From positions 256,001 through 320,000 of the forward strand of contig CAWCPV010000003.1 in assembly GCA_963797555.1 (NCBI GenBank): 64,000 nt of DNA. The letters are read 5' to 3'. A program made the translations under genes and the position numbers. The DNA is from an uncultured Gammaproteobacteria bacterium (GTDB lineage: Bacteria; Pseudomonadota; Gammaproteobacteria; CAWCPV01). This document shows, one piece after another, positions 44,461 to 62,647 of this stretch (the stretch's first letter is position 1; the number at the start of each line of letters is the position of its first letter). The notes beneath the pieces are model-generated. The model saw nothing but the letters and a program-made list of their open reading frames with translations. It was not told the origin of the DNA and ran no database searches.

Positions 44461-44962
44461 ATCTACCAACCCCTCACTGAGGAAACTCACAACCGCTCTC
44501 ACCCCCTTACGTATCCGGCCCTGATCCCTGTCCAGCAATTGGGGTCCACGTCAGTCCGTTTGATGGAACAACGGCTCCACGCTGCTTGTGGCAGGACTGC
44601 CGACAACGACAAGCCGAAACCTGCGAGTGCGCCTTGATGGCACTATCCCGGTTGTGTCTGCAGCACCACAAGTCGCTGACGAGGAAATCGTGGGCCTTGC
44701 CCTCCCCGATTCCCGCCAGCAACAAATTCTCTCGGCCCTGCAAGTCAAACTCGCCGCTCCTTAGCTCCTTGTAGCCAGGCGAAACGCCCGATCTGCCCAG
44801 CGAAAGTCCTTTATTTCGTTAAGGGGGGGTGGTCAAATTAGCTCCTCTTGCATCAATATATTGGGTCCCTGGACACGTCAGGGGACGACGTGGCAGGGTA
44901 AGCGCAACTTCGGGAGTTTAGGTGCTGAAACGCCCGCGCAACGCCACCCGGAGGGACCGCGC

Positions 44963-45985
44963 ATGACCATCTTGAGTCGCTGGACAAGAGAACTCGCTAA
45001 ACTGCGTCCGCACGATGCACAGGCACTCGCCACCGAGGCCATGCTGCTGCGCGCAGGGCTGCGGGCTGGTGCGGAGGCCGTCGAAGACGTGCGCGAGTTC
45101 GCCGAGGCGAGACCGCTGATGGACTTCGCCGGGGCGCTGCTGGTGCGGCACGGCGTGAAAGACGTCGAGAGCTTGTCGGCGAACCAGGTCTTGAACCGCG
45201 CCCTGGAGGTCGGCCTGACCGCCACCTTGGAGGCCGCCAGCCGCCACGCAGTGCTGATGGGCTACGACGTGGCCCCGCAAACCCACGCGTGTTGGGTGGG
45301 CAACACAGGGGTCAAGGACTTCAACGCGCAGGAGCTTGGCGACGTTGGGACGCTCTCCGGCGACTTCGAGCAAACGGCGGTACAGACCTTTAAAAAAATC
45401 GTCCAGATCGGACGCGCCGCGATGCTGAACGACGACGTTGCACCGTTCCTGCGCACCAGCAACAGCTTCGGCATAAGCGCTCGGATCGCCGAGGCGGACG
45501 TGGCATATGCCACGCTGGAGGCCGACTCCACGCTGAACGACGGGTTGGCCACATTCCACACCACGCACGGTAACCTGATGGACGCGGCTCCCCCGACGGT
45601 CACATCCTTGACGGCGGCCGTCGCGGCCCTGCGCTCGCAGGTAGACGATCAGGGCCGGGCCATCAACCTGACGCCCAGCTTCGTCGTTGTTCCCGTGAGC
45701 GTCGAGATCGGAGCGCGGCAAGCCGTCATCTCGATTTACGGCTCGGGCGACCCTGACGCGCCGCGCGTGCTGGCCGAGCCGCGGTTGACCGCGAACTGGT
45801 ATCTCACCTGCGCGCAGACGGAGCGGCCGGCGCTCCACCTGATCGCCCGGTCCGCCTCGCGCGGGCCGTCGGTCAGCATCGGCCGAATCCCGAATTTCGA
45901 CGGGGAAGCGGCGAAATGCGTTTGGGCTTTCGCCGCCGCCGTACTGTCCTGGCGCGGCGCGGTCAAGACTCCGTTGCCGTCATAG
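44963..45985 (+). CDS. Phage major capsid-like protein (Mu gpT-like, as in protease-capsid fusions), intact frame, no protease domain
   Basis: VKDF, AMLNDD, FHTTHGNL, GRAINLTPSFVVVP, AEPRL..WYL, WRGAVK. Confidence 0.8.
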   Translation: MTILSRWTRELAKLRPHDAQALATEAMLLRAGLRAGAEAVEDVREFAEARPLMDFAGALLVRHGVKDVESLSANQVLNRALEVGLTATLEAASRHAVLMGYDVAPQTHACWVGNTGVKDFNAQELGDVGTLSGDFEQTAVQTFKKIVQIGRAAMLNDDVAPFLRTSNSFGISARIAEADVAYATLEADSTLNDGLATFHTTHGNLMDAAPPTVTSLTAAVAALRSQVDDQGRAINLTPSFVVVPVSVEIGARQAVISIYGSGDPDAPRVLAEPRLTANWYLTCAQTERPALHLIARSASRGPSVSIGRIPNFDGEAAKCVWAFAAAVLSWRGAVKTPLPS

Positions 45986-46136
45986 AGCACAGGCGCACTG
46001 CCACCTGCCTTTGCGTTCATCGCTTTCGGTTCGCCCGATTGAAAGGCCGGGTACTCTTTACCAGGTGAAACGTGGACGGGTCTGCACGGTTCTATCGTCG
46101 CACCACAACACCGGAGGAAGCGGTCGATACAGCACA

Positions 46137-47303
46137 CTAGTGTAGTGCTTCATTCTGTTTAGAACTTAAACGTGCGTTGGCGCGGATGACCTTCTGCAGG
46201 ATGTCCTTAGCCTTGGCGGTCCAGATGAAGGGTTTGGGATTGGCGTTGTGGGCATCGACATAGCGGTTGATGGCATGGATCAACTCGGGGACGCTTCGAA
46301 ACACGCCACGGCGCAACCGATCCACAGTCAGGTCGCGGAAGAATCGCTCGACCATGTTCAACCAGGATGCTGAGGTGGGCGTGAAATGGATGTGGAAACG
46401 CGGGTGTTTTCCCAGCCATTTCTGAACGTTGGGATGTTTGTGGGTGGCGTAGTTGTCGCAGACCAAGTGCAGTTCCTTGTCCTTGGGCGTCTCGCGGTCG
46501 ATTTGGCGCAGGAAGGTGAGCCACTCCGTGTGGCGATGGTGCGGCTCGCAGCGGGCAATCACGGAACCCTCCAAGGTGTTCAGGGCAGCAAACAGTGTCG
46601 TGGTGCCATGGCGCTTGTAGTCATGGGTCATGGTCGCAGCCCGCCCCTTCTTCAGCGGCAGGCCAGGTTGGGTACGATCCAGCGCCTGAACCTGACTCTT
46701 CTCGTCGCAGCACAACACCAAAGCATGCTCCGGGGGGGACAGATACAGCCCGACGATGTCCTCCAACTTCTCGGTGAATTTCGGGTCGCGCGATACCTTG
46801 AAGGATTCGACACGATGCGGCTTCAGCCCATGGGCATGCCACACGCGCAGCACCGTGGTGTCGCTCACTCCCATTTCCTTAGCCAGGGTCCGCGTACTCC
46901 ACTGTGTCGCTGCTAAGGGCTGGGTCTGAGTCGTGCGTCGCACGATCTCGGCGGCATCCACCTTGGGCTGACGACCTCCGCGCGGCAGGTCACACTCGAT
47001 GGCCGCCAGCCCGCCTTGCGCATAGCGCTCCCGCCAACGCCCAACCTGCACACGCCCAATCTTGAGTTCCGCCGCGATGGCCTTGTTCTCCATGCCCACC
47101 GCCGCCAACAGCACAATGCGCGCTCGGCGGGCCAGCCTCACACTCGTGGTGTTCGAACGCGACACACGCCTCAGGCTCCGCTGTTCTTCCGCGCTCAGTC
47201 GGACCATCGGGGCTACTCGCATCAGTGCTCTCCTGTCTTGGCTTCATAGCCCTGGACAGCGATAGATCATATATGTTCCGTTAATTACCAAGCACTACAC
47301 TAG
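46137..47303 (-). mobile_element. Complete IS630-family element (transposase 46137-47222)
   Basis: DEK...HDYKRHGTT...DNYATH...WLNMVE; inverted ends ctagtgtagtgctt / aagcactacactag. Confidence 0.95.
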
Positions 47304-47509
47304 TAGGCTGTCGAAGGTCGAAGAGCGCGAGGCCACAGCGACCTTGCAGCGACTCGCAGAGTCCCCCAACGCTGTCAGCGCCATCCGTCAACGCTGCCTC
47401 GCCTGCGCGAGGTCACCATCGGCCGTGTGGATCTGTCGGTTCGGGTAGGAAAAAATCGCCGCTCATAGGGAAGATGTCGATGGAGTATTAGCAGAGCCTG
47501 ATATAGTGC

Positions 47510-47900
47510 TGACGGACTCAGAAGGTGGAAAGCGTGTTGCTGGTGTACGCCCTTGCCCACAACCTGATGCGCACTGCCTTCTTGCGCCTGCGGAAAGCCA
47601 GCCAACCCGATAACGGCACCGCCCGCCCCGGCGCGCGGGCCTCGGAAGGATCCATCGCGCCGCTTCGATGATCTGGGTTTCGGTGCTCCAGGGCCTTTCT
47701 GAACCCGCTGCTCGCGTTCTTGGGCCGCTCGCGAGTGGGCACAAAAAGCCCGCTCGCGCTGGGAGCTTGCTGGCGGGTCGTCTTGAAGCTCTTGGCACGG
47801 TGCTTCGACCTGCACAGGGGCTTCTTGGAGAGCGTTCTCCAGGGTCGGTTGGGACAGAAACTTGCCCTGCACCACCCTAACGATCATTGCGTCTGGCGCC
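47510..47900. mobile_element. IS1182-like transposase scraps (C-terminus on +, mid part on -)
   Basis: KVESVLLVYALAHNLMR (+); TLENALQEA...DDPPASSQRERA (-). Confidence 0.55.
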
Positions 47901-48126
47901 ACCCCAGAGGATGAAAGAAGCTGTGGGGTGGGAGACGGCGGGAAGAGGTCGCGCAAGTTTTTGGCGGCTCGACCCCGCAACCTAACGTGACCCGCCGGAC
48001 CGACTCGTACCCCGGATTGCTTCCCTACAGAGCGCACGTTAAACAGGCCGTCTGTCTGACGTCAATTACTCTGTCCGGTTGACGACAACTAGAATGGCCG
48101 CTCTGTAGTGTAGGCGGTAGTTGTCG

Positions 48127-48891
48127 TCAGCTCTTGTTCGATACCTCCTGGTTGCGGGTTGCTTGGCGCTTTCGGTAGCTCTGCCCGTTGAGTTCGATGA
48201 TGTGGGCATGGTGGACGAGCCGGTCGATGGCGGCGACGGCCATCATGTTGTCGGGGAAGATCGCATCCCACTCGCTGAAGGGGTGGTTGCTGGTGATCAG
48301 GAGACTGCCGCTCTCGTAGCGGTGGGCGATGAGCTCGAAGAGCACGGAGCTTTCCATCTCGGTGCGCTTGACGTAGCCGATGTCATCGAGGACGAGCAGC
48401 GGGTACTTGTCGAGCTTGGCGAGCGCATCGCTGAGCCTGAGGGCCTGTTTGGCGGTTTGAAGCTCCTGGACGAGGCTGGTTGCCGAGGCGAAACGCACCC
48501 GCACCCCTTGGCTGATGAGCCCGTGCCCAATGGCTGCGGCGAGATGGGTTTTGCCGACGCCGGAGGGCCCGAAGAGCAGGAGGTTGTCGGTGCGCTCGAC
48601 CCAGGTGGCATCCTCGGCGAGCTGCACAATCTGCTGGCGGTTCAGCCCGGCGCTGGCCGTGAAGTCGAAGTGCTGGAGCGTCTTGCCCGCGGGCAGGCGG
48701 GCATCGTTGAGGTGGCGCTCCAGGCGCCGCCGCTCGCGTTCGGCGAGCTCGTGCTCGCAGAGCGCGGCGAGATAGTCGGCGAGGCTCCAGTGGTGCTCGA
48801 GGGCCCGGGTTTGCAGCGGTTGATACAGCCGTGCCATGGTCGGCAGGCGCAGCTCCCTGAGCAGCAGGGGCAAGGTGGCGGCGTTAGCCAT
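48127..48891 (-). CDS. istB: IS21 helper ATPase
   Basis: GPSGVGKT, LVLDDIGY, AIDRLVHH. Confidence 0.95.
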   Translation of the reverse strand: MANAATLPLLLRELRLPTMARLYQPLQTRALEHHWSLADYLAALCEHELAERERRRLERHLNDARLPAGKTLQHFDFTASAGLNRQQIVQLAEDATWVERTDNLLLFGPSGVGKTHLAAAIGHGLISQGVRVRFASATSLVQELQTAKQALRLSDALAKLDKYPLLVLDDIGYVKRTEMESSVLFELIAHRYESGSLLITSNHPFSEWDAIFPDNMMAVAAIDRLVHHAHIIELNGQSYRKRQATRNQEVSNKS

Positions 48892-50413
48892 GGCACACCT
48901 CCTCGGCGGCACTGCGGTGGGTGGCGGGCAGGAGCGCGTCATAGTCGGCCAGCGGGTGCTGAGCAGTGGCGCCGAGAGGGAGCGTCGCGGGGGCTGGCGG
49001 TGCGAAGCGTTGTTGCAGGGCGCTGAGCGTGGGCGATAGGCCTCGCTCCAGGGCGGCCAGCCAGTGGGTCCCCAGGGCCTCCTGGCACTCGTGCTCGGCG
49101 GCGAGCTTGAGTGCGCCGACCATGCGCTTGCAGGCGTCGGCGGGCGCAAGGGTAGCGTCCAGATGCTGCCAGATACGCTGATAGGTGGCATCCGGAAGCA
49201 GGGCGTCGCGGTACTGGAGCCGATAGAAGGCGCGGGGCTTCTTCACCAGCCATCCCACGAGATGGCGATAGTCGATGCGGCTCGCCCGGCGCTTGCCCGG
49301 GGCCGGGTAGACCCGCGGGAGGATGAGCAGGGCCTCGGTGCCGAGGAACAGCTCCAGGCGGGCGTCATAGAGGTGCACCCGCAGGCGCTCGCCGATGAGC
49401 CGCGCGGGGACCGAGTAGACCACCAAGCGCACGGTGATGGTGCTGGCGGTGGTGACCTTCACCCACAGCTCGGTGTAGTCGGCCGCGAAGGTCACCGGCA
49501 GGGGCCGCAGATGGGGGCGCTCGGCCTCGATGGCGGTGGCGTTACGCCGGTTGACGGCGGCGGTGACGGTGTCGAGAAAGTCCTGGTAGGACGCCACCGA
49601 GGGGAACTCGGCACTGCCCCGGGCCAGAAGGCGCTGCACGATACGGCGCTTCAAATGCCCGTGGGGTGACTCGATGCTGCCGTTCTCGTGGCAGGCCCCG
49701 GGGTTGTTGCGCGTCGGCCTCATCCCATAATGGGCGCAGAGCGCCGCGTAGCGCGCCGCAAGGTCGTGCTGGGCCTCAGCCGAGAGGTTCTTGAACGCCG
49801 CCGAGAGGCTGTCAGTGCGGTGCTCGGCCGGTGCACCGCCCAGGCGCAGCAGCGCCTGGCTGAGCCCCTCGGCGAGCGCCGTGAAGCTCTCCCCGCCCAG
49901 CACCACCCGCACCGTGCACCAGCCGCTGTAGGCCAGGCGGAAATGGTAGAGGCGGTGGGCGAGCGGCTCGCCGGCGATGGTGACGGTGACGTCCTTGAGC
50001 ACGGTGAAATCCGACAAACCCCGCAGTCCCGGGACCTGCTGCTGTGGGAACATCACCTCCTTCTCGGGTCCATGCGCCGCCCGCCAGGCCTTCACCCGGC
50101 GCTGCAAGGTGCGCAATAGCTTGTCCGGGTACTGGCCCGGATGGCGCTCCTGGAGCCCTTCCAAGAGCGTCAGCGCGTGCAGTGCCGGGGTGTGCTCAAG
50201 CAGTGGGACCAGCTCGCTGTCCCACACGGTGTCAAAGGGGTCGCGGCGCGTTCGATACCGCCGCGCGCCCCGCGGTGCTCGACGCTCGTCCCGCTCGTCA
50301 AGACGGCGCGCCGTGCGCTCCGAGAAACCCGCCTTGGCGGCGGCGGTTACTTGGTTCTTACCTGCGGTTCTCTGTGACATATAGACCTTGACCTGTTGCG
50401 GTGTGACGGCCAT
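48884..50413 (-). CDS. istA: IS21 transposase
   Basis: SDFT, HRTDSLSAA, HENGSIE. Confidence 0.95.
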   Translation of the reverse strand: MAVTPQQVKVYMSQRTAGKNQVTAAAKAGFSERTARRLDERDERRAPRGARRYRTRRDPFDTVWDSELVPLLEHTPALHALTLLEGLQERHPGQYPDKLLRTLQRRVKAWRAAHGPEKEVMFPQQQVPGLRGLSDFTVLKDVTVTIAGEPLAHRLYHFRLAYSGWCTVRVVLGGESFTALAEGLSQALLRLGGAPAEHRTDSLSAAFKNLSAEAQHDLAARYAALCAHYGMRPTRNNPGACHENGSIESPHGHLKRRIVQRLLARGSAEFPSVASYQDFLDTVTAAVNRRNATAIEAERPHLRPLPVTFAADYTELWVKVTTASTITVRLVVYSVPARLIGERLRVHLYDARLELFLGTEALLILPRVYPAPGKRRASRIDYRHLVGWLVKKPRAFYRLQYRDALLPDATYQRIWQHLDATLAPADACKRMVGALKLAAEHECQEALGTHWLAALERGLSPTLSALQQRFAPPAPATLPLGATAQHPLADYDALLPATHRSAAEEVCHG

Positions 50414-50599
50414 CCCTCCCCCCGAAGCATCGGATGTCAGAACGCCGCCAGTGTGGCCGATCAACCGGACAAAGTAGTTGTCGCCAACCGGTCAACGTAA
50501 TTGTCGCTCTATAGCCGTCGGCGGCTTGCCGCCTTCAGGCTCACTCGGTCCGGCACCCGCCGTCTCCCATCTCTTGAGTGTATTGCGACGGGAGACGAC

Positions 50600-51787
50600 A
50601 TGGAACTGGTAGCGATCTTCAAGCGTGTCATCGGTCTGGATGTGCATCAGGGGCAAGTGACCGCCTGTGCCATCCTTGAGGAGGCCGACGGCCAAGTCTA
50701 CATCGAGCAACGCCAATTCGGTGCCTTCAAGAAAGACCGCCGGGCGCTCGCGGAGTGGTGCGCGGGATTTCGCCCGGAGGAGGTGGTCATGGAGAGCACC
50801 GGCATTTACTGGAAAAGTCCTTACGCAGCCCTAGAGGCGCACGGCATCCAAGCCAAGGTGGTCAACGCCCGCCACGTCAAGCAGGTCCCGGGACGCAAGA
50901 CCGACATCGGCGATGCCCAGTGGCTGGCCATGTTGGCTCGCGCCGCTCTGTTGCGCGCCTCCTTCGTGCCGAAGGCCAAACTGCGCGAGCTGCGCCTGAT
51001 CGCCCGGCAGCGACAGAAGCTCGTGGGCTTGGCTGCCTCGGAGAAGAACCGGCTGCACAAGGTGCTCACCGATGGTGGCATCCGCCTGGGGGTGGTGGTG
51101 AGCGATATCCACGGCCAGTCGGCCCGTGCCATGCTGAAAGCCCTCATCCAGGGGGCTGCTGCCCACGAGGTCCTCCCCCTGGCCAGCCGCCGGCTGAAGG
51201 CGAGCCGCGAGGAGCTGCTCGATGCCCTGCAGGGGGACCTGACCGAGTCTCATCGCTTCGTCCTCGATGAATTGATGCGCCACATCGAGGAGCTCGAAGC
51301 CCGCATCGCCCGCTTCGATGCTCGCTTGCTCGAAGGCCTGAAGGAGGAGGCCAACAGCCTGCTGTTGTTGCAGACCCTACCAGGGGTCAATGTCATCGGT
51401 GCCGCCATGCTGCTGGTGGAAATCGGTAGCGACATGAGCGCCTTCGGTCATGCCGAGCGGCTCGCTTCCTGGGTGGGTATCTGCCCCGGCAACCACGAGT
51501 CGGCCGGCAAGCGCCAATCGGGGCGCACCCGCAAGGGCAACCCCTATGTGCGTCGTCTGCTGTGCGAGTTCGCCCATGCCGCAAGCCGTACCCGCTTGCG
51601 CCGCGGCCGCAAACGAGCCATCATCGCTCTGGCCCACAAGATGTTGCGTATCATCTTCTGCATGCTCTCGCGCGGCCAACACTACCGGGATTCGGCCACT
51701 GACTATGAAGCCCTATTTGTGAAACGCAACGCCCCACGCTGGATCAAGGCCCTCAGCCGCTACGGCTTCCTGCCAGCCGCCGCCTGA
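50600..51787 (+). CDS. IS110 DEDD recombinase/transposase
   Basis: GLDVH, MESTG, KTDIGDA, ESAGK; C-terminus looks slightly shortened. Confidence 0.95.
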   Translation: MELVAIFKRVIGLDVHQGQVTACAILEEADGQVYIEQRQFGAFKKDRRALAEWCAGFRPEEVVMESTGIYWKSPYAALEAHGIQAKVVNARHVKQVPGRKTDIGDAQWLAMLARAALLRASFVPKAKLRELRLIARQRQKLVGLAASEKNRLHKVLTDGGIRLGVVVSDIHGQSARAMLKALIQGAAAHEVLPLASRRLKASREELLDALQGDLTESHRFVLDELMRHIEELEARIARFDARLLEGLKEEANSLLLLQTLPGVNVIGAAMLLVEIGSDMSAFGHAERLASWVGICPGNHESAGKRQSGRTRKGNPYVRRLLCEFAHAASRTRLRRGRKRAIIALAHKMLRIIFCMLSRGQHYRDSATDYEALFVKRNAPRWIKALSRYGFLPAAA

Positions 51788-51861: not shown

Positions 51862-52120
51862 AAAGTCCGCCAAACTGTGGTAGTTCACCGCCACCCCACC
51901 GCACAGCAGCGGTAGGCATCATGCTGTTGGCACAGGCGCTCGAGCGTCCGCGCACTGCCCCCTCCACGGTCGCACACAGCCACAGCGCCATCAGGATCGC
52001 AGGGGCAATCGGCGGGCGTCCCGCCCCGCTCTCCACAGACCGGATCCCCTGATACAGGGGCGATAGATCGATTCCCTCTACGAACGCCCAAACCCCTGCG
52101 CCGTTGTCGGTCACCAAGAG
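51862..52120 (-). mobile_element. IS1182-like transposase N-terminal fragment
   Basis: VWAFVEGIDLS, GRPPIAPAILMALWL, VNYHSLADF. Confidence 0.75.
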
Positions 52121-52285
52121 CGGGGGCTTCGCCAGGGGTCCGTGCAGCCGCTCCGCCTCGGCGCGGGCGCTATCGAGCGCGGCGGCGACCCGGCTGCCTA
52201 TCTTCGACCCTGCCTCTGCTCGGCGGGAATTCTTCAGAAATTTTACCGACGCTCAGCCAATCCTCCTGTAAGTCCTTGTCCTGTT

Positions 52286-52335
52286 TGGCGTCCCCAACGG
52301 GATTCGAACCCGTGTTGCAGCCTTGAAAGGGCTGT
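52286..52335 (-). repeat. att site: 50-bp exact duplicate of the 3' part of tRNA-Glu
   Basis: Identical to 60988-61037; lacks the tRNA 5' end. Confidence 0.95.
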
Positions 52336-52471
52336 CTGACGTCCGCAGCCGTCCGTCGCTGTCCACGTAACCCATTCTCCCGCTTGCTTTCCTGTCCATG
52401 CTCGTCCATACTCGTCCGTAGGGTTCCACCCTGGGGTATTACGGAAGATTACGGAAGCGAGGGTTACCGCC

Positions 52472-53712
52472 ATGCCAAGAATCGCACGGGACGCGCGCAT
52501 CGAGACACGGGACGCCCGGACCCGGCTGAAGGTCCGCAAGGAGCCGTACTGGCGACAGATTCACTTCGGGCTGTCGGTCGGGTACTACCGGGGCGCTCAC
52601 GCAGCCGCCTGGGTAGTGCGTCGCAGGGTAGACAGCCGCTATGCCTTCGAGACCTTGGGCGCCGCAGACGACCACCAGGACGCCAACGGTCTGGACGTCC
52701 TGAGCTACGCCCAAGCCTGCCGCAAGGCCATGGAGCTGGCCGATCAGGCCGTGACCGCGCCGGTCGAGCGCGGCTACACCGTGGCCGATGCCTGTCGGGA
52801 CTATCTGCTGTGGTTCAGGGCGCACCGCAAGAGCTACCGGGACACGGAGCGCACCGTCAACGCGCACATCCTGCCCGCCCTGGGGGCGCAAGGTAGCGAA
52901 CCTGACGACGGTGGATCTGCGCCGCTGGCACCAAGAGCTTGCGGAGGCCCCGGTCAGGCGCCGCGGCAAGCTGGTCCCTGCGGACCCCACCGATACCGAC
53001 GCGACGCGGGCCAGGAAGGCCACGGCGAACCGAATCCTGACCGTGCTGAAGGCCACGTTGAACATGGCCTACCGCGAGGGGAAGGCATCGACAGACGAAG
53101 CCTGGGATTGCGTGCGCCCGTTCCGTGCGGTCGAGGAGCCGAAGGTCCGCTATCTGACCGCGGCCGAAGCCGAAGCGGCTGATCAACGCCTGCCTGCCAG
53201 ACTTCCGGGATTTAGTGGTCGGTGCGCTGCTCACCGGCTGCCGGTACGGGGAGCTCTGCCGGCTGAAGGTCGGAGATTGTGACCGGGACGCGGGCACGAT
53301 CAGGGTCTCGGAGAGCAAAGCCGGGAAGGCCCGCCATGTGCCGCTGACCGACGAAGGCCAAGCGCTGTTCGAACGGATGGCGGCCGGCCGGCGCGGGACC
53401 GCTCCCGTGTTCGTGCGTCCCGACGGGGAGCCCTGGGGCCAGTCGCACCAAGTCCGGCCCATCCGGGAGGCGAGCCGGCGAGCCGGAATAGACCCGCCCG
53501 TGTCGTTCCACATCATCCGCCACACCTATGGGTCTCTGCTCGCCATGCGGGGCACGCCACTGGACGTGATCGCCGCGGCCCTGGGGCACAGCGACACGCG
53601 CATGACTTCCCGCCACTACGCCCACCTGCAGCCGTCCTATGTGGCGCAGACCATCCGGGCGAACCTGCCGAGCTTCGGGGTTCGGCCTGGGAACGTGCGG
53701 CGCATCGGGTGA
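52472..53712 (+). CDS. Tyrosine integrase (frameshifts near 52887 and 53175)
   Basis: TGCRYGE, SKAG, FHIIRH, LGH, RHY; TTACGGA arm-like repeats at 52439, 52449, 60935, 60946. Confidence 0.92.
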
Positions 53713-53717
53713 GCGCC

Positions 53718-54266
53718 ATGGAGCAATTCAGCCGATGGTGCCGACATGTCGGAGGGAAGCCCGACGGCTACGCCCGCCTGTATGAGTTCGCCAAAGCCAT
53801 GGAGCGAGGCGAGACGCCTCGCCCCGAGCTGTTGCGCGAGCTGGCGGACGTGTTCAATCGGATTCTTGGATGACCAAGACCCGGCGCGCGCCCTGGGGCT
53901 GAAGAAACGCCAAGGACGCCGGATCACCATTCAGTCGTTGGACCGTGCGATTCTATCGCAGAGGGCGTCGTCTGGCTGCGCCTGGGAGGCTGCCCACTGG
54001 AAGCGAACGACCCTCGGCGCGTCGGAGCCTTCGCTGAAGTCGCTAAGCTTGCGAACAAAGCAGAGGCGACAGTGCGCGCGCAGTATGCCAGGCATCGCCG
54101 CAGCGCCATCCTCGAAGTGAAGATGAAACTTCTTACCGTGCTGGCCGTCGATCGGATGCACGGCAAAGACCCGAACCCCGACGTTTTGTCCTTGCTGGAG
54201 AAGCTGCCGCAGCCTTTTGCGCTCGTGACGGCTGATGTTCTCGCCTGGCTCTCTTATCAGAACTAA
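53718..54266 (+). CDS. Hypothetical satellite protein (frameshifted)
   Basis: ATG just after int; joinable frames ending WLSYQN. Confidence 0.45.
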
Positions 54267-54376
54267 GCCGCCAAGTACACCCCCAAGAAATCACCGTCGA
54301 TTTGTTGAGGGTTAGCATTCGCTGATCCGCGTGGTGAAATTGCTCCTTCGCCTATCCGCGCACGGAGTAAGACACC

Positions 54377-54631
54377 ATGTCCAAGAAGGATTCGCCCCGC
54401 CCCACGGGCACAGACCCGGCCGCCTACGGCTCCTTGACGGCGTTCTTTGCCGCACACGGCCTGTCTAGGTCGAAGGGCTATGAGCTGGTCCGCGCGGGCT
54501 TCGGCCCGCAGACCACGCGGATCGGGAACAAGCAAGTCGTGTTCGCGGAGCAGGCCGTTGAGTGGCGCGCGCGCTTGGCGAAGATCGGGACCATCCCAGC
54601 AGAATCGAAATACAGGCGGGCAGTCAGATGA
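54377..54631 (+). CDS. AlpA/excisionase-like winged-helix protein
   Basis: FFAAHGLSRSKGYELVRAGFGP..RIG; GGAG RBS. Confidence 0.7.
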   Translation: MSKKDSPRPTGTDPAAYGSLTAFFAAHGLSRSKGYELVRAGFGPQTTRIGNKQVVFAEQAVEWRARLAKIGTIPAESKYRRAVR

Positions 54632-54770
54632 CGGCCGCCCCAGCAGGCCCCGGCGGGCCCCAGACAAGCCGAAGCCCTGCGAGGGACAGGGCTTCGGAGG
54701 AGGGCACAGACCAGACGAGACGACAGAATAACACATCCCTGGCCGCGCGTAGCTCCCCTCGGGAGGTGCC

Positions 54771-56141
54771 ATGGCAGGCCTAGCCGAGCGCGCAAAGAAG
54801 CTGGACGAGCGCATGGAGCGCGCGGAGGCCAGGGCAGACGCAGCGAACGCTGCACGCGAGCGGCGCAGGGCGAACGGCGCCCCACCCGGCGCGGAAAACC
54901 GATCTGCCGATCAGACCTCTCGCATCAAGGAAACCCTCGAAGGCATCCGCACCGGCAACGACCTGCGCGGGATGGAACTCTCCCCGGTCACTTGGGCTGT
55001 CGAGAGGCTGATCCCCGCTGGGGTGACCATCTTGGGCGGAAAACCGAAAGCGAAGAAGAGCTGGATGATGCTGGGCATTGCCATTGCCGTGGCGTGTGGC
55101 GGGAAGGCGCTCGGGAGCATCGACGTGGACCCTGCGGACGTGCTCTATCTGAGTCTGGAGGACGGGAAGCGGCGCTTGAAGCGTCGGGTGGACATCCTGG
55201 AGCGCAGGGCGGACTTGTCGAGGCTGCACTACGCGACTCAGTGGCCGCGGCTGCACGAGGGCGGCACCGAGGCGCTTGAAGCATGGCTCCGGTCCCATTC
55301 GGAGACCCGACTGGTCATCATCGACACCCTCGCCAAGGTACGCCCGCCAGGGAAGCAGAACGAGACCCTGTACACCAACGACTACATCGTGGGCGAGCTG
55401 CTGATTGGTCTCGCCACCCGCTTCGACGTGGCCATCGTGCTCATACACCACTGCCGCAAGCTGGACGCGGAGGACCCGATCGACCTCATCAGTGGATCTC
55501 TCGGGCTCACGGGCGGTGTTGACGGCTACATGGTGCTGAAGCGGGCGGTCGGTGAGCGTGATCTGGCCTTCCTCACCGTGGTCGGGCGCGACTTGGACGA
55601 GGATCAAGAGCTGGCCGTCAAGTGGCATCAGCCAACCGCCACGTGGCACATGCAGGCCGGCAACGCTGAGCGCTACAAGCTATCTCATGAGCAGCGCGCC
55701 GTCATCGAGGCCCTGTCCGAGCATGGGCCTATGCACACCAAGGATCTGGCCGAACGGCTGCACCCTGGCACGAAGATCAGCGACACCGAGCAGTCGAGGG
55801 AGTACAAGAGCACCGCTAAGCTGTGCAGCAAGTTGGCCGCCAAGGACATGATCCATCGGCGGCACTATGACAAGAAGTGGGACGTTACCAATACACAAAC
55901 ACCGGTAGTAGTAGTAGAAGAAGAAGAAGTAGTAGAAGCGGTAGAAGCGGTAGAAGTGACAGGTAAGGGTACCGACTTCTACCGGTGTGAGGGGGCTTCT
56001 ACCGGTACTTCTACCGGTTACGAGAACTCTAATATACGTTCTGCCGCAACGCCTGCACGGGAAACTTCTACCGCTTCTACCGGTACTACCGCGCGCGCGC
56101 GCGAACCTGGCGATGATGACGACCTAGAGGAGCAACCATGA
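54771..56141 (+). CDS. AAA_25 (RepA-like) replicative helicase
   Basis: GKPKAKKS Walker A, YLSLED, LVIIDTL, IHHCRK, SGS. Confidence 0.88.
   Translation: MAGLAERAKKLDERMERAEARADAANAARERRRANGAPPGAENRSADQTSRIKETLEGIRTGNDLRGMELSPVTWAVERLIPAGVTILGGKPKAKKSWMMLGIAIAVACGGKALGSIDVDPADVLYLSLEDGKRRLKRRVDILERRADLSRLHYATQWPRLHEGGTEALEAWLRSHSETRLVIIDTLAKVRPPGKQNETLYTNDYIVGELLIGLATRFDVAIVLIHHCRKLDAEDPIDLISGSLGLTGGVDGYMVLKRAVGERDLAFLTVVGRDLDEDQELAVKWHQPTATWHMQAGNAERYKLSHEQRAVIEALSEHGPMHTKDLAERLHPGTKISDTEQSREYKSTAKLCSKLAAKDMIHRRHYDKKWDVTNTQTPVVVVEEEEVVEAVEAVEVTGKGTDFYRCEGASTGTSTGYENSNIRSAATPARETSTASTGTTARAREPGDDDDLEEQP
55902..56091. repeat. Iteron-like array (putative origin) in the helicase 3' end
   Basis: 4x GTAGAAG followed by 5x inverted CTTCTAC. 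Confidence 0.65.
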
Positions 56142-56692
56142 ACGACATCCCGGTACGGCTACCCTACGGCGGAACGCATTGGGACCCGACCATCCCGCGC
56201 GGCGTGCTGGATGGTTTCATCCGGGCTCGGCATCCCGCGAAGCACTACTACGGGGCGCTCTGGATACCGCCCGGGTTTACCTCTACAGAGCGGTTCAAGA
56301 ACTGGGCCATCGCGATGAGGGAGCGGGCATCCTGGCAGCGCGTGGTGAGCTTCATGGATGCCACCGGGCTACGCCCGAGCGAGGCTTACCGTCGCGTGTT
56401 CCCTCCCCACGGGTTGATGTGGCATCCATACTTCGACCATACGCTGATCTGGCGCGATGACGGCGGGTATATCGTCACGACTGAGCCCTATGGCGAGTGT
56501 GCCCACAACGACCCCGAGGGTACGGCATTCTGGGCAAGAGAACACGGCTGGCAGTGCGTCGCTGCTCCCGAGTGGGGGATGTGGAGACCACCGGAGACGC
56601 ACTTGTGGATACTTTCGCCGCCACGCGTCGGGGCGGACGTGGAAAAGGTCATCCGGCGACTGACGGTTCAACACGAGGGCAAGAGGGTATGA
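56138..56692 (+). CDS. Hypothetical protein, 184 aa
   Basis: GAGGAG RBS; ATGA overlap with the helicase stop. Confidence 0.7.
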   Translation: MNDIPVRLPYGGTHWDPTIPRGVLDGFIRARHPAKHYYGALWIPPGFTSTERFKNWAIAMRERASWQRVVSFMDATGLRPSEAYRRVFPPHGLMWHPYFDHTLIWRDDGGYIVTTEPYGECAHNDPEGTAFWAREHGWQCVAAPEWGMWRPPETHLWILSPPRVGADVEKVIRRLTVQHEGKRV

Positions 56693-56737
56693 GCACCACC
56701 TACCACCTTCACCCGCTGGCCGACGCAGGCGCAGATC

Positions 56738-56847
56738 GCGGGGTGGTTGCGGGTGAGCCGAGCAACTATCGAAAATTGGGTGACAACCAATGATAAAGTT
56801 GTCATTGGTTGTCACCAGTCCAACTCGCCCGAGCGCATGCGCGGACG
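56738..56847 (+). repeat. Cassette A (HTH-like segment plus 38-bp palindrome)
   Basis: 110-bp ungapped inverted homolog of 57978-58087; palindrome 56779-56816. Confidence 0.9.
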
Positions 56848-56956
56848 CTCTGGTCCCGGACCGAGTCGAGGCTCTGTGGAAGGTGGATGTGTCTGAAGCT
56901 TCAGGCATATGAGAATATTATCAAACGCTTCAGAACGTTGTGGCCCAACGTTTCAC

Positions 56957-57000
56957 GGGTCCTCCCTGGCCTCCTCCTCTGCGGTCCAACGGGCCTGCGG
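56957..57000 (+). other. Lambda-like cos region
   Basis: GGGTCCT (lambda cosQ sequence) 90 bp before a Nu1-like terS. Confidence 0.5.
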
Positions 57001-57046
57001 GATTTAGCTAGCGTAACGCCTCCCTAGAGGATTCCTTCCCTACCCA

Positions 57047-57547
57047 ATGGGCATCAACGTCAACAAAAAACAGTTGGCCGAGATCTTCGGATTGAGTCAG
57101 AGGACCTTGACCGAGCTGCAACGCGCAGGATTGCCCATCGAGGAGCGCGGCGCCCGCGGCCGGCCGCCATGTGTACGATACAGCCGCGGTCCACGCGTGG
57201 CTCCTGCGGCCGCGAGTCCGTGAAGCATCGCGCCAACGGCGATGGGCGCCCGCTGGACCTGGACCAAGAGCGCGCCAAGCTCGCAGCCGCTGATCGCGCA
57301 TTGAAGGAACAAACCTTGCGCGAGAGGTCGGGCGAGCTGATTGACGCTTCCTGGGTGCGTACTACCGCTCGCACGCTCTGCGCAACCGCCCGCGAGCGGT
57401 TCGAGGTCCTGCCAGACCGCCTGGCTGCAATTCTCGCGGCCGAGAGCGACGAACGGCGGGATTTACGATCTGATGGCGAACGAGATCCGCGCGGTGCTGG
57501 CCGAGTTTGCCGAAGGTTCGATCGAGAAGTTTGGCGAAGTAAGGTAA
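57047..57547 (+). CDS. Terminase small subunit, lambda Nu1-like (frameshifted)
   Basis: MGINVNKKQLAEIFG...YDTAAVHAW...ERAKL...GELID. Confidence 0.85.
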
Positions 57548-57977
57548 TTCCACAGGAGACGAAAATGCACAAGCCACCCGATGACTTCACCCAGAGCCAG
57601 AGCCCGCGTTTGCTGATGCAGCGCGCCGTGGTTTCACTCCCGACCCGGTATCGCCGCCACGGCTGTCCTTGTTGGCGCCGCCTGTGGACCGAGATCGAGC
57701 CGCACCTGAAGAAAGGCGGACATTCCTGCCGCGTTCACGTGCGAGTTCACGCGCACCGAGGCCGAGTTGGCCGCCCGGATCAGCTCGCCTTGCTGGCGGG
57801 CATCGGTCAACGTCGAGGCCGGCGCCCAGGCCGCACCGAGGCCGCCAACGGCAAGCCCGATACCGCGAGCGTAATACGGGTGTGCCGAGCATTCAGCCAC
57901 CACGCATTCGAAACCTCCCGCCGGCGTGAGGTTGTGCTCCAGGATTTCTCTGCTTGTCCTCCTTGCTGAGCTTCGCT

Positions 57978-58144
57978 CGTCCGCGCATGCGCTCGGGCGA
58001 GTTGGACTGGTGGTAACCTTTACCAGAGCTGGTATTGGTTACCAGCTAATTCGCTACGGTCTGCTGGCTCACCCGCAACCACCCCGCTCGGGCGAGTTGG
58101 GCTGGTGGTAACCAATGACAACTTTATCATTGGTTACCACCCAA
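57978..58144 (-). repeat. Cassettes B (57978-58087) and C (58086-58144), inverted relative to A
   Basis: 38-bp palindromes at 58009-58046 and 58104-58141 sharing the flank ctcgggcgagttggrctgg. Confidence 0.9.
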
Positions 58145-58541
58145 ACCTCCGGGCGGTACTAGCGCCATGAGCCGCGAACGCCTCGCCCAAGCTGCTGACG
58201 CTGGCCGAGAGACACGATCCGGCGTTGCACGCGTGGTTCCGTGACTCGCTGGCACGGTGGAAGTGCGGGTCTACCCCTGGAGACCGCCCTGGAGCTGGCA
58301 GGCCCGGGCGCTCGTCGGCTTCGGGATTCCGCCATCCGCGCCTGGCCGAGCTGCTGGACCCGGACGGCCGAGTACTCGCGATGGCACGTCGCTGGGCTTG
58401 TGATGCGTGCGCTCGCCAGGAAGCACACCAGCGGGGAGATTGGCGCCGCGGTCCAAGCTATTCTGGCATTGGGGTGCGTGGTTCCGGGGCGCCGCCGAGT
58501 GTGGAGCCTCCTGGAAGGCAGACAGGGCGGGATGCTGCTGA

Positions 58542-58722
58542 AGGAGGAGGAGCGCAGACAGGGCGGAGACGGGAAGTGCGCGGTTGCCGGCAACGTTGCC
58601 GGAACCGTCGAATCCTACGCCCGTGCTCTCGAGGAGGAGGAGCGCAGACAGTTGGCGAACGGACTGACAAACTTCCGCCAATATTGGCGGAAGTCTCACC
58701 CTACGCCCGTGCTCTCGAGGAG
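58542..58722 (+). repeat. Tandem 86-90-bp units with conserved flanks and different palindromic cores
   Basis: aggaggaggagcgcagacag x2; cctacgcccgtgctctcgaggag x2; palindromes 58587-58602 and 58671-58694. Confidence 0.9.
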
Positions 58723-58808
58723 CTCGCGTTCTTTGCAATTCTCGCCATCGCAATTGCAAAACGACTCTGTTTCGATAGAGCCTCAGAATTTATCGCGAGG
58801 CGCAGATA

Positions 58809-59885
58809 ATGCAGAAGAACGATAAGCCAGATTGACACGCCCGATTCCATTCTCGCCGCGAGCGACGTTCGAGCCGCGATGGGCGATTGGCTCGCGCTTC
58901 GCGCGGGCCTTCTGCGCGCTGATGATGCGGACCCGATAGCCGGTGGAGCTGACTGGATCCGCTCGCACCGGCCACGCTCGCGGATGTTGCTTGCCATCTG
59001 GCGCGGCCGGGGCAGTGGCGTCACCGCTCACGAGGCGGCCCGAGAGTTTCACGGCACCGATTTTACCGATTCGTTGAGCGTCGGATTGTCCCAAGTGGCA
59101 GGCATCGCGTATTCGCGGCAGGCCGCGGAGAATTCGCAAATCTGCAAAGACGTTACGGTCCCGAATCTCCAACCCGTCGCGTTTCCTGTTTTGGACGTTG
59201 GCGAACTCAGCGAAACGCCGAATGCGGGTGGTCCCGTGCAATTCGCGACCACGTTTGCGAGCGATGGCGTATTTGGAAGCAGCGAATGTTTTCTCTGCGC
59301 GTTTCCTGATTCCGCGCAGACTTGCTCGTAAACGACAACGCTGGCATTGTCGCGCTGGCCGTTGCTCAGTTATCTGGGCATGCTGCTGCGTCTCGAGGCC
59401 CAGGCCATCGCTGCAATTCTCGCGAGCCAACGCGAACTTGGGCGATGGCGCGCGCATTGATCGGCATCGGAAAACACCGCGAGCGGTGGGATCACGAGCG
59501 TAACGGGTCTTGCTGCTGCCGCTGGGAAGCTGCGTACGCGGAGCACGTCGGGCGGAAACGTTGCGAACGTGAAGGCGCGCTTCTTGGCTCGTTGCTGGCG
59601 ATGCGGAGTTTGCCGCGTTGACGACCCTTGGCGGTATCATCCGGGCGGCACACCGCGGATCGATGTGGTCACGAATGCGTGGCTACCGGCTGCGACAGCT
59701 TCGTACCTTTTAGCATCTCCAGATGACGCGCCCACTTTCATTCGGCTCGGGCTGACTTCTCCACCGAAGCCAAGCGTGATCCGACGCCGAGCGCCTCCGG
59801 TTTCGACGGATTGGCGTATGTCGTCGAGCACGTTTTCGGAGTTGCGGCTGTTTCTCGGGATGGACTTGTGAAGATAACGGCGTGA
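58809..59885 (+). pseudogene. Multiply frameshifted capsid-like gene homologous to 44963-45985
   Basis: LALRAGL, LVNDN, SYLLA, FDGLAYVVEHVFGVAAVSRDGLVK parallel LLRAGL, MLNDD, WYLT, FDGEAAKCVWAFAAAVLSWRGAVK. Confidence 0.65.
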
Positions 59886-60987
59886 ACGCTATTCAGGTTA
59901 AACCCGTCGTCCGCCAATTCGTAAATGCTGGCATTTGCCGACGCTGCGCCTCGCAGCTCGCCAAAGCTCTTCGCGTCGAGCCACCCGGCGCGCTGTCGGT
60001 CACGATTTGCGCGCGGCGCGGGATGAGCTTTGATCGCAAGCCGCAATTCATCCGGCGACTTGGTTTTCGAGCCGATCGAGGCGGGCGATGTGTTCGCGAA
60101 TGTGGGGACCTGGAACGCTGCAATGAGCCGCGATTCCTGGATCATGATGCGCCTGCGACCCGACGGCTCTCTGACCTTCTTCCGTTCGTGTCTTTCGGCA
60201 GAGGAAGGCGCGGCGATGGCTTCTCGCGATTCGACGCTGCGCCTGATGACCCGCCGGCAGGCCCTGGAGGCGGAGCTGGGTCAGGAGCGCACGATGGTCA
60301 CCGGGCGCATCGGCCGCCGCCGCAGATAAGCCCACCGGCCGCGCCCGATTGGGAACGTCGGGCCGGGATTGCCGCTCCGGTCGAGGCCCGCTCAACCTCG
60401 CCACGCGGCGCTGAGCAGTGCCCTGGCCTCGAGCCTCGTCACCTCGGGGCTGGATTGTTTCACCTCTCCTCCATTCGCCCCGGCTTCGTGCTGGGGTATT
60501 TTTTTGGCCGCCATCCAGTGGCGCAGGGGTGGAGCCACCCAGGACTTAACTTCCTTAATTGTCTATGTAGGCCTGTGGGACTTTTGGTGGGACTTTTTGA
60601 AGTCCCAGCAACGCGCTTAGTGCGGCAACGCTATTGCCGTTGCTGGGACACGCGGGACTTTTGCGGTCCTAGGACTTGTCCCAGGTAGGTAGTCCCATGT
60701 ATCAACAAGCCTTCGGAATGCGCCGGCGAGGTTTACCAACTTTTGGAGTGTACACACTGTTTTTGAGTAAATCCCGACTGAGTGTCTGCTGACTCACCCC
60801 CTGCCGCTCTGCCGCCCGACGCCCCGAGGAAGGCCCCTCTCGCGTCGCTGGAGGCGAGATCGCACCGGCCCCCTTGCCAGGATACCCACCCCGCCCTTGA
60901 CGGCCGGTCGGGCGCCCATGCCCCGGTCGGAATTTTACGGATATTTTACGGAAGCCTCGCTAGCGATCCTGTAAGTCCTTGTTTGTT

Positions 60988-61063
60988 TGGCGTCCCCAAC
61001 GGGATTCGAACCCGTGTTGCAGCCTTGAAAGGGCTGTGTCCTGGGCCTCTAGACGATGGGGAC
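60988..61063 (-). tRNA. tRNA-Glu (TTC)
   Basis: 76-nt cloverleaf, anticodon loop CT-TTC-AA, GTTCGAATC, CCA end. Confidence 0.97.
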
Positions 61064-61115
61064 CTGGATACGTATTGGAACTGAGTGGCGGTTTCGGCAG
61101 AAACGCCGATGGGGT

Positions 61116-61191
<76 letters not shown>

Positions 61192-61208
61192 GCAACGATA
61201 GGGCGGAA

Positions 61209-61237
61209 ACTCTACGCCACGCCCATTCTAGTGTCAA
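61209..61237 (-). promoter_or_regulatory. Sigma70 promoter of the tRNA pair
   Basis: TTGACA-17 bp-TAGAGT. Confidence 0.75.
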
Positions 61238-62647
61238 GCGGAGGCGTGCAAGCGCACATAATCCATTGCCTGGGTAATGCGTTGTACGGCTTTGTCCCGA
61301 CCGACTAGGCAGGTCGTCACGTCGATAGGGGGAGACACGGCTCGACCCGCCAAGGCCACTCGTAGCGGCTGCGCCAGTTTGCCCACCTTAATCCCGCAAG
61401 CATCAGCCACCGCCTGCACGACTTCGTGAATGGCGGCCGCGTTCCATCGCTCGAGTCCCGCGAGCCTTTCACGCAGCATACCCAGAGGCAACGTCACATC
61501 ACGCGTCAGGTGCTTGGCCGCGTCTTTGGCATCGTAGCCCCGGAAGTCCGTGTATATGAAGGCACTGTTGGCTGCCATCTCGACTAGAGTCTTAGCGCGT
61601 TCCCTCTGCGCCAGGACGACGTTCCAGCAGATCGGGCCCGTCCGCGGGGTCGATTCCCAGTCGACCCATATGCCATGCCAGATGCCGAGCCACATGGGCA
61701 GCATCACTCGATTTCAGGTAATGTTGGTTGAGCCAGAGCAGCTTGCCGGGGTTAAAGATAGCAGGGGAGCGGTGGATGTCCTTAAGATCGAAACGTTCTA
61801 TCATCTCGCCCACGGAGAACACTTCCTGGTCTCCGTAGGACCAACCCAGGCGCACCAAGTAGTTCAGCAGCGCTTCGGGCAGATGGCCGTCCTCGCGGTA
61901 CTGCATCACGCTCACCGCGCCGTGGCGCTTAGAGAGACGCTTGGCGTCCTCGCCCAGAATCATGGGGATGTGCGCGTGAACGGGAATGGGTGCGCTCAGC
62001 GCCTTCAAGATATTTATTTGGCGAGGAGTATTGTTGAGGTGATCGTCCCCGCGTACGACGTGCGTAACACCCATGTCCCAATCGTCCACTACCACCGCGA
62101 AGTTGTAGGTGGGCGTGCCGTCCGAGCGCGCGAGCACGAGGTCGTCCAGCTCGCTGTTCTGGAACAGCACCTTGCCCTTGACTAAGTCATCGACGACCAC
62201 ATGTCCATCCATGGGCGTCTTGAAGCGGACGACGGGCTCGACGCCAGGCGGCGGGAACCCGGTGCGTGCGCGGCACCGGCCGTCATAGCGCGGCTTTTCC
62301 CTACGCGCGAGCTGCGTTGCGCGCATCGTATCGAGATCCTCCTTGGTGCAGTAACAACGGTACGCCCTGCCCTCCTCCAGCAGCCGGTCGACGACCTCCC
62401 GGTAACGCTCCAGACGCTGGATCTGGAAGTACGGCCCTTCGTCGTAATCCAGTCCGAGCCACGCCATCCCTTCCAAGATGGCATTGGCGGACTCCGGCGT
62501 CGAACGCCCCACATCCGTATCTTCGATACGCAGCACGAATGTGCCGCCGTGTTTCCGTGCGTAGAGCCAGGAATAGAGCGCCGTGCGGGCGCCACCGATA
62601 TGAAGGTAGCCAGTCGGACTGGGTGCGAAGCGGGTACGAACGGACAT
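61234..62647 (-). CDS. gltX: Glutamyl-tRNA synthetase (canonical copy); frameshift near 61615
   Basis: [21 protein letters not shown]; linked to tRNA-Ala/Glu. Confidence 0.93.

Follow-up and report, generated by a model that had tools for sequence, protein, structure and literature searches.

Inverted repeat units with palindromic cores in a satellite-like tRNA island of an uncultured gammaproteobacterium

How do short repeat units come to share identical flanks around a core that differs, and how do they remain palindromic while the core changes? These questions are raised by three related units, here called A, B and C, in the genome of an uncultured Gammaproteobacteria bacterium (assembly GCA_963797555.1). 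The window analyzed is a stretch of 64,000 nt from contig CAWCPV010000003.1 (positions 256,001 to 320,000), and coordinates without a contig prefix refer to it. The units lie within an 8.7-kb island at a tRNA-Glu gene, whose ends are marked by a 72-bp direct repeat from the 3' part of that gene. An earlier note, made from the DNA letters, had proposed that they form a partly decayed system for swapping DNA-recognition segments. The feature is genuine, was described correctly in that note, and is an orphan in sequence. The analysis establishes how the units are built, their mosaicism, the symmetry of their changes, their setting in a satellite and their lack of relatives, but not a diversification system. 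We favor, with a probability of about one half, the explanation that A, B and C are duplicated, inverted modules with dyad sites in a degraded mosaic satellite, and that these sites are of operator type, the latter being a guess at function. Known processes in a mosaic, degraded satellite explain the feature well enough.

Units A, B and C and their palindromes

Unit A occupies 56738–56847 on the forward strand and consists of a left flank of 22 nt, a variable stretch of 21 nt, a palindrome and a right flank. Unit B is located on the reverse strand (57978–58087). Set against A, its reverse complement (58087–57978) gives a gapless alignment of 110 nt. The two are identical in the left 22 nt and the right 35 nt; all mismatches (27/27) are confined to the 53-nt core, where identity is 49%. 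That all of them should fall by chance in a single block of this length has a probability of at most 1.5e-9, and the similarity between A and B breaks off abruptly on either side of the 110 nt. Unit C (58085–58144, reverse strand) is truncated, comprising 5 nt, then the palindrome, then 19 nt of the right flank, and it matches A at 92% across 60 nt. It adjoins the left flank of B, with which it forms a tandem of 95-bp period. B has outer arms as in C and flanks as in A, and C is a mosaic of A and B. A and B are mutually inverted, as are A and C, which lie 1.25 kb apart. The constant flanks around a variable core and the mosaic structure of C are real and non-random; the gapless alignment, the identical 22- and 35-bp flanks and the differing middle reported in the earlier note were all verified.

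A sits in a hairpin-rich leader, 230 nt upstream of a terminase start, and B and C stand directly before the next gene, with 26 nt between the end of C and the ATG at 58168.

Each unit contains a palindrome of 38 nt (56779–56816 in A, 58009–58046 in B and 58104–58141 in C). Those of A and C are perfect, with arms of 15 bp around a spacer of 8 bp (15-8-15). On the forward strand their spacers are reverse complements; turning C into the orientation of A makes them identical at 8/8 positions. Two neighboring positions distinguish the arms of A from those of C, and both are matched on the opposite arm. B does not have this geometry: its palindrome is imperfect, with three unpaired arm positions and a different, self-complementary centre. 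This centre is made of arm-like hexamers (TACCAG/CTGGTA) and offers alternative palindromes of 6-2-6 and 8-5-8. The earlier claims about palindrome length, the perfect 15-8-15 sites of A and C, their inverted common spacer, their compensated arms and the distinct core of B were reproduced in full.

The palindromes have a G+C content of 42%, compared with 65% for the genome, and their centre is AT-rich. A degenerate pattern describing them is expected 0.00 times in a shuffled window. The 5.3-Mb assembly contains 106 palindromes (arms ≥13 bp, spacers ≤10 bp); those of A, B and C are exclusive to this locus with up to eight substitutions allowed, and nhmmer matches only these.

Sister islands and mirrored palindrome changes

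The same genome carries four further islands of this kind with the same gene order. They are located at tRNA-Val (C3:322.8-334.7 kb, here c3b), tRNA-Leu (C3:~346-354.2 kb, here c3c), tRNA-Lys (C4:825.7-835.3 kb, here the C4 island) and tRNA-Arg (C6:~106-118 kb). The order common to all five is AlpA, primase/helicase, (a DUF4326-like gene), a Nu1-like small terminase (TerS), an MSRxRL protein and a capsid-like protein. The A/B/C palindromes are absent from all four sister islands. The island in the window is the only one with its type of helicase, and the only one with A/B/C units.

Short modules nevertheless connect these islands. The segment 56099–56681 is 97–98% identical over ~580 bp to the C4 island (C4:830345-829700), whereas the neighboring TerS gene is only 74% identical. 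Such a stretch between islands that are otherwise ~74% identical or unrelated suggests recent recombination. The segment includes most of an open reading frame (ORF) of 184 amino acids (aa), the C4 copy of which is interrupted by ~50 extra bases. Likewise, a unit near the right end of the window's island, w607 (60718–60816, reverse strand), is 96% identical to a repeat in c3b, while neighboring genes are only 73–79% identical. B and C, together with ~100 bp to their left, take the place of a spacer (c3b, 81 bp; c3c, 76 bp). Judged from these alignments, co-resident satellites evidently trade short modules.

Palindromes are also found at the equivalent places in the sister islands. In c3b, a perfect 24-bp palindrome ends 28 nt before the ATG of the MSRDRL gene, compared with 26 nt for C in the window. 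Four hairpins with arms of ≥8 bp occur in each of the TerS leaders of c3b and c3c. In c3c, three perfect palindromes of 24–26 bp, flanked by A- and T-runs, precede the terminase gene (C3:350400-350630), and these look like stacked canonical two-way intrinsic terminators. The terminase ORF of c3c ends after 117 aa.

Two further palindrome families show how such sites change. In the window, P1 (58582–58606), a 24-bp palindrome with one extra G, and P2 (58671–58694), a perfect 24-bp palindrome, lie in tandem units of ~89 bp (58582–58694) after the homologue of the MSRDRL gene, which is spelt MSRERL for the window. They have a relative in c3b (C3:330243-330266). Comparing this 24-mer with P1 and P2, all four substituted positions are mirrored on the other arm, giving four pairs. 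The w607 unit is an inverted copy of the repeat that ends the MSRDRL gene of c3b. Its sole differences from the first c3b repeat (rep1, C3:330663-330756) in 94 nt are the four central bases of an 8-bp palindrome, each exchanged for its complement so that the palindrome is preserved. Summed over the three families (A/C, c3b-P1-P2 and w607), there are eight mirrored changes and no unmirrored substitutions, apart from the one inserted G of P1.

Because mirrored changes occur in three unrelated palindrome families, they point to a general cause rather than to a special recombination site, and the compensated arms of A and C are no special evidence for sites resembling lox. We take arm compensation to be common to long palindromes in these islands, arising through hairpin-templated correction or the binding of a dimer. 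The 15-bp arms of A and C are free of G-U and G-T pairs; a single U-G occurs only in an extended stem of 17 pairs, at the loop. The absence of such pairs from the arms, together with the antisense orientation of B and C, suggests a constraint at the level of DNA rather than RNA. Template switching that perfects quasipalindromes is an established mutational route in Escherichia coli, as outlined by the Lovett laboratory (PMC7202029). As in that process, a change in one arm appears copied to the other, and all three families fit. The process as outlined there was shown with engineered E. coli reporters rather than natural satellite palindromes (PMC7202029), and it leaves the 21-nt non-palindromic variable stretch of A and B unexplained.

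Coding content, relatives and island anatomy

The variable stretch of A overlaps a reading that resembles a helix-turn-helix (HTH) motif, and a putative small HTH gene can be drawn at 56689–56896 on the forward strand. Its start codon (ATG, 56689) shares bases with the stop of the 184-aa ORF (ATGA), as fits a translationally coupled next gene. The frame opened by this ATG ends after 34 codons, and the HTH-like reading runs from 56693 in the +1 frame; the gene is either frameshifted or not a gene. One further +1 insertion, of a kind common nearby, would explain the offset. The translations given in the earlier note, including the out-of-frame start, were confirmed. Its description of A as HTH-like holds at the level of a motif: HTH_23, HTH_29 and HTH_28 of Pfam span the left flank and variable stretch at E 0.02–0.08, all below threshold (best score HTH_23, 15.1 bits against a cut-off of 24.6). 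A phmmer search of 1.84 billion representatives returned two matches, a multi-HTH repeat protein (E 1.4e-4, in four stretches) and a low-complexity repeat protein. The suggested likeness of MSTTYHLHPLAD to ParB N-termini was not borne out: at E ≤10, the 34-aa ORF gave no Pfam match of any kind, and a 67-aa reading gave none to ParB.

The B reading has no Pfam match and contains a TAG stop in the HTH frame, and the C-B junction is out of frame. In the recognition helix, B differs from A by R/Q, A/Q and E/A changes and retains T, N and the hydrophobic positions (I/V, V/L); only one of the 15 codon changes is synonymous. The sequences at the two ends of the unit (GGTGAG ... CTCGCC..GCGCAT) are shared with the c3b and w607 repeats, with a difference of 6 nt in unit length. 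In c3b the repeat occurs twice, in tandem, at the 3' end of the MSRDRL gene, and w607 is a single inverted copy near the right attachment site (attR) of the window's island. In the same frame, these repeats give a DeoR-like HTH (PF08220, E 0.005–0.015, below threshold). B shares 15/16 nt with the c3b repeat, a score reached by 0/500 shuffles. On balance, we consider a coding origin of the A/B/C units somewhat the likelier case.

Searches beyond this genome gave no relatives of the units. Among 400 genomes of the same class, DNA searches found only chance matches of 20–45 nt (18/400 genomes at E ≤0.01, including the source; best foreign E 2.4e-4). Scans for the exact palindrome cores in genome and viral contig collections gave 0 matches. 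A pattern drawn from the flanks matched six metagenome and five genome sequences, all of them unrelated coding sequence with no palindrome, and a second unit pattern matched two unrelated genome sequences and no viral ones. No match to the units was found in phages and plasmids by blastn or in phages by tblastn. The A reading matched only B and C in its own genome; of 401 genomes of the phylum, seven had a match at E ≤0.01, including its own, the foreign ones being at E 0.003 or weaker, and a word-index search found no relative. The 184-aa ORF and the helicase have no close relatives among named genomes, and the GTDB family of the source contains this genome only. No collection searched yielded a homologue of the units or of the HTH-like peptide, or a related element with more cassettes.

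The restriction of the units to one locus also bears on comparison with known repeats. Repetitive extragenic palindromic (REP) sequences and bacterial interspersed mosaic elements (BIME) are extragenic palindromes present in tens to hundreds of copies per genome. A, B and C resemble them in their 35–40-bp palindromes, conserved flanks, tandem or inverted intergenic pairs and stems kept by paired changes. They differ in being restricted to a single locus. A genome-wide repeat similar to REP or to miniature inverted-repeat transposable elements (MITE) was rejected, there being three copies at one locus.

The island itself is delimited by attL at 52264–52335, which matches 60967–61037 at 97% over 72 nt (blastn-short) and includes part of a partial tRNA match (52297–52349), and by the attR repeat (60967–61037) in the tRNA-Glu gene (60988–61063), together spanning 60967–61063 on the reverse strand. 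Next to attL is a tyrosine integrase in two frames (52472–53712, forward; 52472–53182 and 53215–53712). Only its second ORF, of 165 aa, matches Phage_integrase (PF00589, E 3.8e-27), from model position 31, and the first ORF has no Pfam match. An AlpA-like small HTH regulator follows (54377–54631, forward; Phage_AlpA PF05930, E 9e-4, slightly below the cut-off), and then an intact AAA_25 replicative helicase-like gene (54771–56141, forward; PF13481, E 1.2e-24) that also matches helicase and primase families of PHROG. The 3' end of this gene contains an iteron cluster (55899–56092) of direct and inverted CGGTAGAAG-type repeats (families D2, D6, I5-I7, I11, I13, I15). The C4 island has a CGGTAAC-type cluster at the same place in its helicase gene (C4:830360-830573), and both clusters are likely to be island-specific replication origins. 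The GGTAAC core of the C4 iteron is also found in the arms of B and C.

The genes downstream of the helicase include those next to the units. The 184-aa ORF (56138–56692, forward) has no Pfam or PHROG match. The Nu1-like TerS (57047–57547, forward) has three successive +1 frame changes, as its intact paralogues align by tblastn in frames 2, 1 and 2, and Phage_Nu1 (PF07471) matches its first 58 aa. The segment 57598–57880 is conserved in c3b and c3c by blastn, and a reverse-strand ORF of c3b matches it by tblastn at 58% over 59 aa. The MSRDRL homologue (58168–58513, forward) is frameshifted and has indels, tblastn detecting it in two frames. For the MSRDRL protein there was no relative in the PDB, and the Atlas gave only unnamed phage-associated clusters. 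The capsid-like gene (58864–59882, forward), found by tblastn with the major capsid protein (MCP)-like protein of c3b, has internal stops and out-of-frame patches; the c3b protein matches head protease and major head families of PHROG. Outside the island, left of attL (44861–51787), are a Phage_capsid_4 gene, then an IS630-type DDE_3 transposase, an IS21 IstA/IstB pair and an IS110-family transposase, and short stretches at 51862–52190 match the flanks of the C4 and c3b islands. The IS630 transposase of the window has no similarity to the A reading.

By its gene make-up the island would count as a phage satellite in the broad sense. As outlined in PMC10085698, where such elements are catalogued by SatelliteFinder, phage-inducible chromosomal islands (PICI) and P4-like satellites carry an integrase, AlpA, a primase-helicase and packaging genes. 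The island described here is small and tRNA-integrated, with an integrase, an AlpA-like regulator and a replicative helicase with iterons; it has its own small terminase and a capsid-like gene, and no tail or lysis genes were seen in it. With TerS and a capsid-like protein alone, its gene set is an exact fit to none of the four satellite families as they are outlined there (PMC10085698).

The right half of the island is rich in frameshifts. AlpA, the helicase and the 184-aa ORF (54.4–56.7 kb) are intact. In comparison with their intact c3b paralogues, TerS, the MSRDRL homologue and the capsid-like gene are readable only through repeated frame changes or internal stops. Pairwise DNA alignment of 57.0–59.9 kb with the intact paralogue gives ~20 single-base insertions and ~4 single-base deletions; the region has ~1 single-base insertion per 90 bp. 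The insertions in 57047–59882 lie mostly outside homopolymers, and the frame is often restored after a short patch. The partly decayed state noted earlier is apparent in this frame disruption. Natural bacterial decay tends towards deletions, while some long-read chemistries tend towards insertions. Given this bias, which is odd for natural decay, the right half is either a genuine relic or was poorly polished; any sequence error of this sort would be local, since other parts of the window contain long intact ORFs. The assembly is 84.6% complete in 20 contigs, and rpoB and rpoC were not found in it.

Weighing the explanations

Several explanations treat the units as parts of a recombination system. 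The earlier note took A for an expression copy and B and C for silent inverted cassettes that swap a recognition-helix segment, in a shufflon-like manner, the system now being decayed. Identical flanks around a variable core, the mosaic C, the mutual inversion of A and B, and the altered recognition-helix positions of B alongside conserved T, N and hydrophobic positions would all be expected of such cassettes. Against it, there is no in-frame constant part, only one of the 15 changed codons is synonymous, the start codon is out of the HTH frame, B is interrupted by its stop, C is truncated, and the sole recombinase of the island is a frame-split integrase of the tRNA type 3 kb away, the neighbors outside the island being the IS630, IS21 and IS110 transposases. 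Furthermore, a single crossover in the flanks would also flip the terminase gene off its leader, the centre of B looks as though it arose by local rearrangement of arm sequence and was not imported as a cassette, and no relative with more or intact cassettes turned up in any collection searched. The swapping system is distinctly improbable on these grounds. A diversity-generating retroelement was rejected: the 19 RVT_1 matches of the genome, spread across nine contigs, all fall outside the window, and in both copies each of the four bases takes part in mismatches, with no specificity for adenine. A related proposal holds that A and C are lox-like core sites at which a tyrosine recombinase inverts the 1.3-kb terminase segment, as an on/off switch for packaging. 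LoxP and FRT have 13-bp inverted arms around an asymmetric 8-bp spacer (13-8-13), and A and C are similar in having inverted arms, an identical asymmetric 8-bp spacer in inverted orientation and a tyrosine integrase encoded in the same island. The spacer identity is expected in any case, as the copies are 92% identical. Each site has its own matched arms; an inversion after the arms had diverged would have produced hybrid, imperfect sites, which are not observed. In addition, the integrase is of the tRNA-site type and frame-disrupted, the palindrome arms occur nowhere else in the genome and hence not at the att sites of the island, and the other palindromes of these islands have zero spacer. 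Such a switch is improbable, and the loxP-like sites of the earlier note are sustained in the geometry of A and C but not in their matched arms, in the generality of the symmetric changes or in B. What separates the locus from loxP/FRT and shufflon systems alike is the lack of a cognate recombinase and of hybrid arms, and a B unit without such a spacer. It is very improbable, finally, that the units are specificity cassettes, in which HTH recognition-helix codons and the adjoining dyad that the protein binds lie between constant flanks acting as handles for recombination, and co-resident satellites exchange the whole 53-nt core. If so, the specificity of regulator and operator would change in one step, and the packaging genes of each satellite would be under its own private control, in miniature of the swapping of immunity regions among lambdoid phages.

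The main rivals to operator-type sites are hairpin insulators and pure debris, either of which we regard as unlikely. As hairpins of RNA or single-stranded DNA, the palindromes would serve as a terminator or insulator, an RNA stabilizer or a processing site, with structure rather than sequence under selection. The predicted hairpins are very stable (z -4.9 for A, -5.0 for C and -2.4 for B), their stems are preserved through two-sided changes, the left and right flanks pair (with G-U) only on the strand that reads the left flank first, and sister islands have canonical A/T-flanked hairpins in the same leader. However, the hairpins lack the U-tract of an intrinsic terminator, no T-run follows A, B or C, and a terminator scan of 56000–59000 gave 0 sites. 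RNA stems also tolerate G-U pairs of the kind missing from the arms, and B and C are antisense to the surrounding genes. A structure shared by all unit types was rejected, since the related c3b and w607 units fold no better than shuffles (z -0.1 to -1.05). In a search with Rfam 15 of 52000–62000 (E ≤1), only tRNAs reached gathering scores; the few other matches were far below, and none fell in 56689–58144. As neutral debris, the repeats would be remains of a dead element with no present function, formed by duplication, inversion and template switching driven by the palindromes. The heavily frameshifted surroundings, the uniqueness of the units to this locus, the imperfect B and the truncated C suit this account, and template switching alone can keep arms perfect, as outlined in PMC7202029. 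Set against it are the flawless 15+15 bp of A and C and the identity of the A/B flanks over 57 nt despite the insertion density of the region, and also the placement before two gene starts, which is paralleled by palindromes in intact sister islands. It is most improbable that the units are a bipartite replication origin or enhancer bound by the helicase or initiator of the island, for which the ori plus crr of phage P4 would be a parallel. In its favor, A directly follows the replication module, the units recur at a second site, their palindromes have an AT-rich centre, and only the island with this helicase type has them. This reading was set aside because iterons were found in the helicase gene: that cluster, which has a counterpart in C4, already provides a candidate, and the arms of A, B and C do not contain its iteron. 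A binding site for the island's own TerS was also set aside, as the N-terminus of the C4 TerS is nearly identical and C4 has no such palindrome.

We return to duplicated, inverted modules with operator-type sites. The source of the module would be the 3' two-thirds of a small HTH-type gene, or a regulatory region, located between the replication genes and the small-terminase gene. Copies may have been made by local duplication and inversion, followed by patchy recombination or gene conversion, both among the copies and with related units from co-resident satellites; this would leave a diverged core between identical flanks. B, with a stretch like the c3b repeat between A-type flanks, fits such patchy recombination among related units, although the fit is not compelling. 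Arm complementarity was presumably kept by hairpin-templated (quasipalindrome) template switching, and a dimeric binding protein may additionally select for symmetry. The sites could then act as operator-type sites for a satellite-specific regulator, insulating or controlling the packaging genes. Their function is suggested by position alone: the terminase leader contains A, and C immediately precedes the next start codon. Known arrays provide a precedent: lambdoid operators are dyad-symmetric, and the centromere of the F plasmid consists of tandem units that each have an inverted repeat. The present locus resembles such operator and centromere arrays in its tandem dyad sites ~95 bp apart, their location in leaders and upstream of starts, and their element-specific sequence. 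It differs in the perfect symmetry of 38 bp, which is unusually long, and in that the sites here are candidates proposed from sequence.

A number of points weigh against this explanation. A perfect dyad of 38 bp is long for a simple operator, and the 15-8-15 geometry is that of tyrosine-recombinase sites. Gene conversion of both flanks with the centre untouched is not the simplest outcome. The covariation measures were reached in 7/500 shuffles and, with three sequences, have little statistical power. A regular expression built from the unit ends has four matches in the genome, at exactly the places described, against ~0.01 expected by an estimate from base composition, and it was written post hoc, after the repeats had been seen; nhmmer found no link of A or B to the c3b and w607 repeats. 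The peptide has no true homologue among the 1.84 billion representatives, so that its coding origin leans on a short motif. Finally, the frameshifts of the right half may be assembly errors, which would alter how decayed the element is.

The new means of diversifying DNA-binding proteins that the locus seemed to offer is not borne out by the evidence. The locus cautions that no dedicated diversification machine is needed for compensated arms, or for a variable core between identical flanks, to arise. In addition, the five sister satellite-like islands of this isolated lineage form a natural data set on how long palindromes persist and evolve, posing the question of templated self-correction versus selection by dimeric binders. 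These islands also bear on how co-resident satellites keep their regulation separate.

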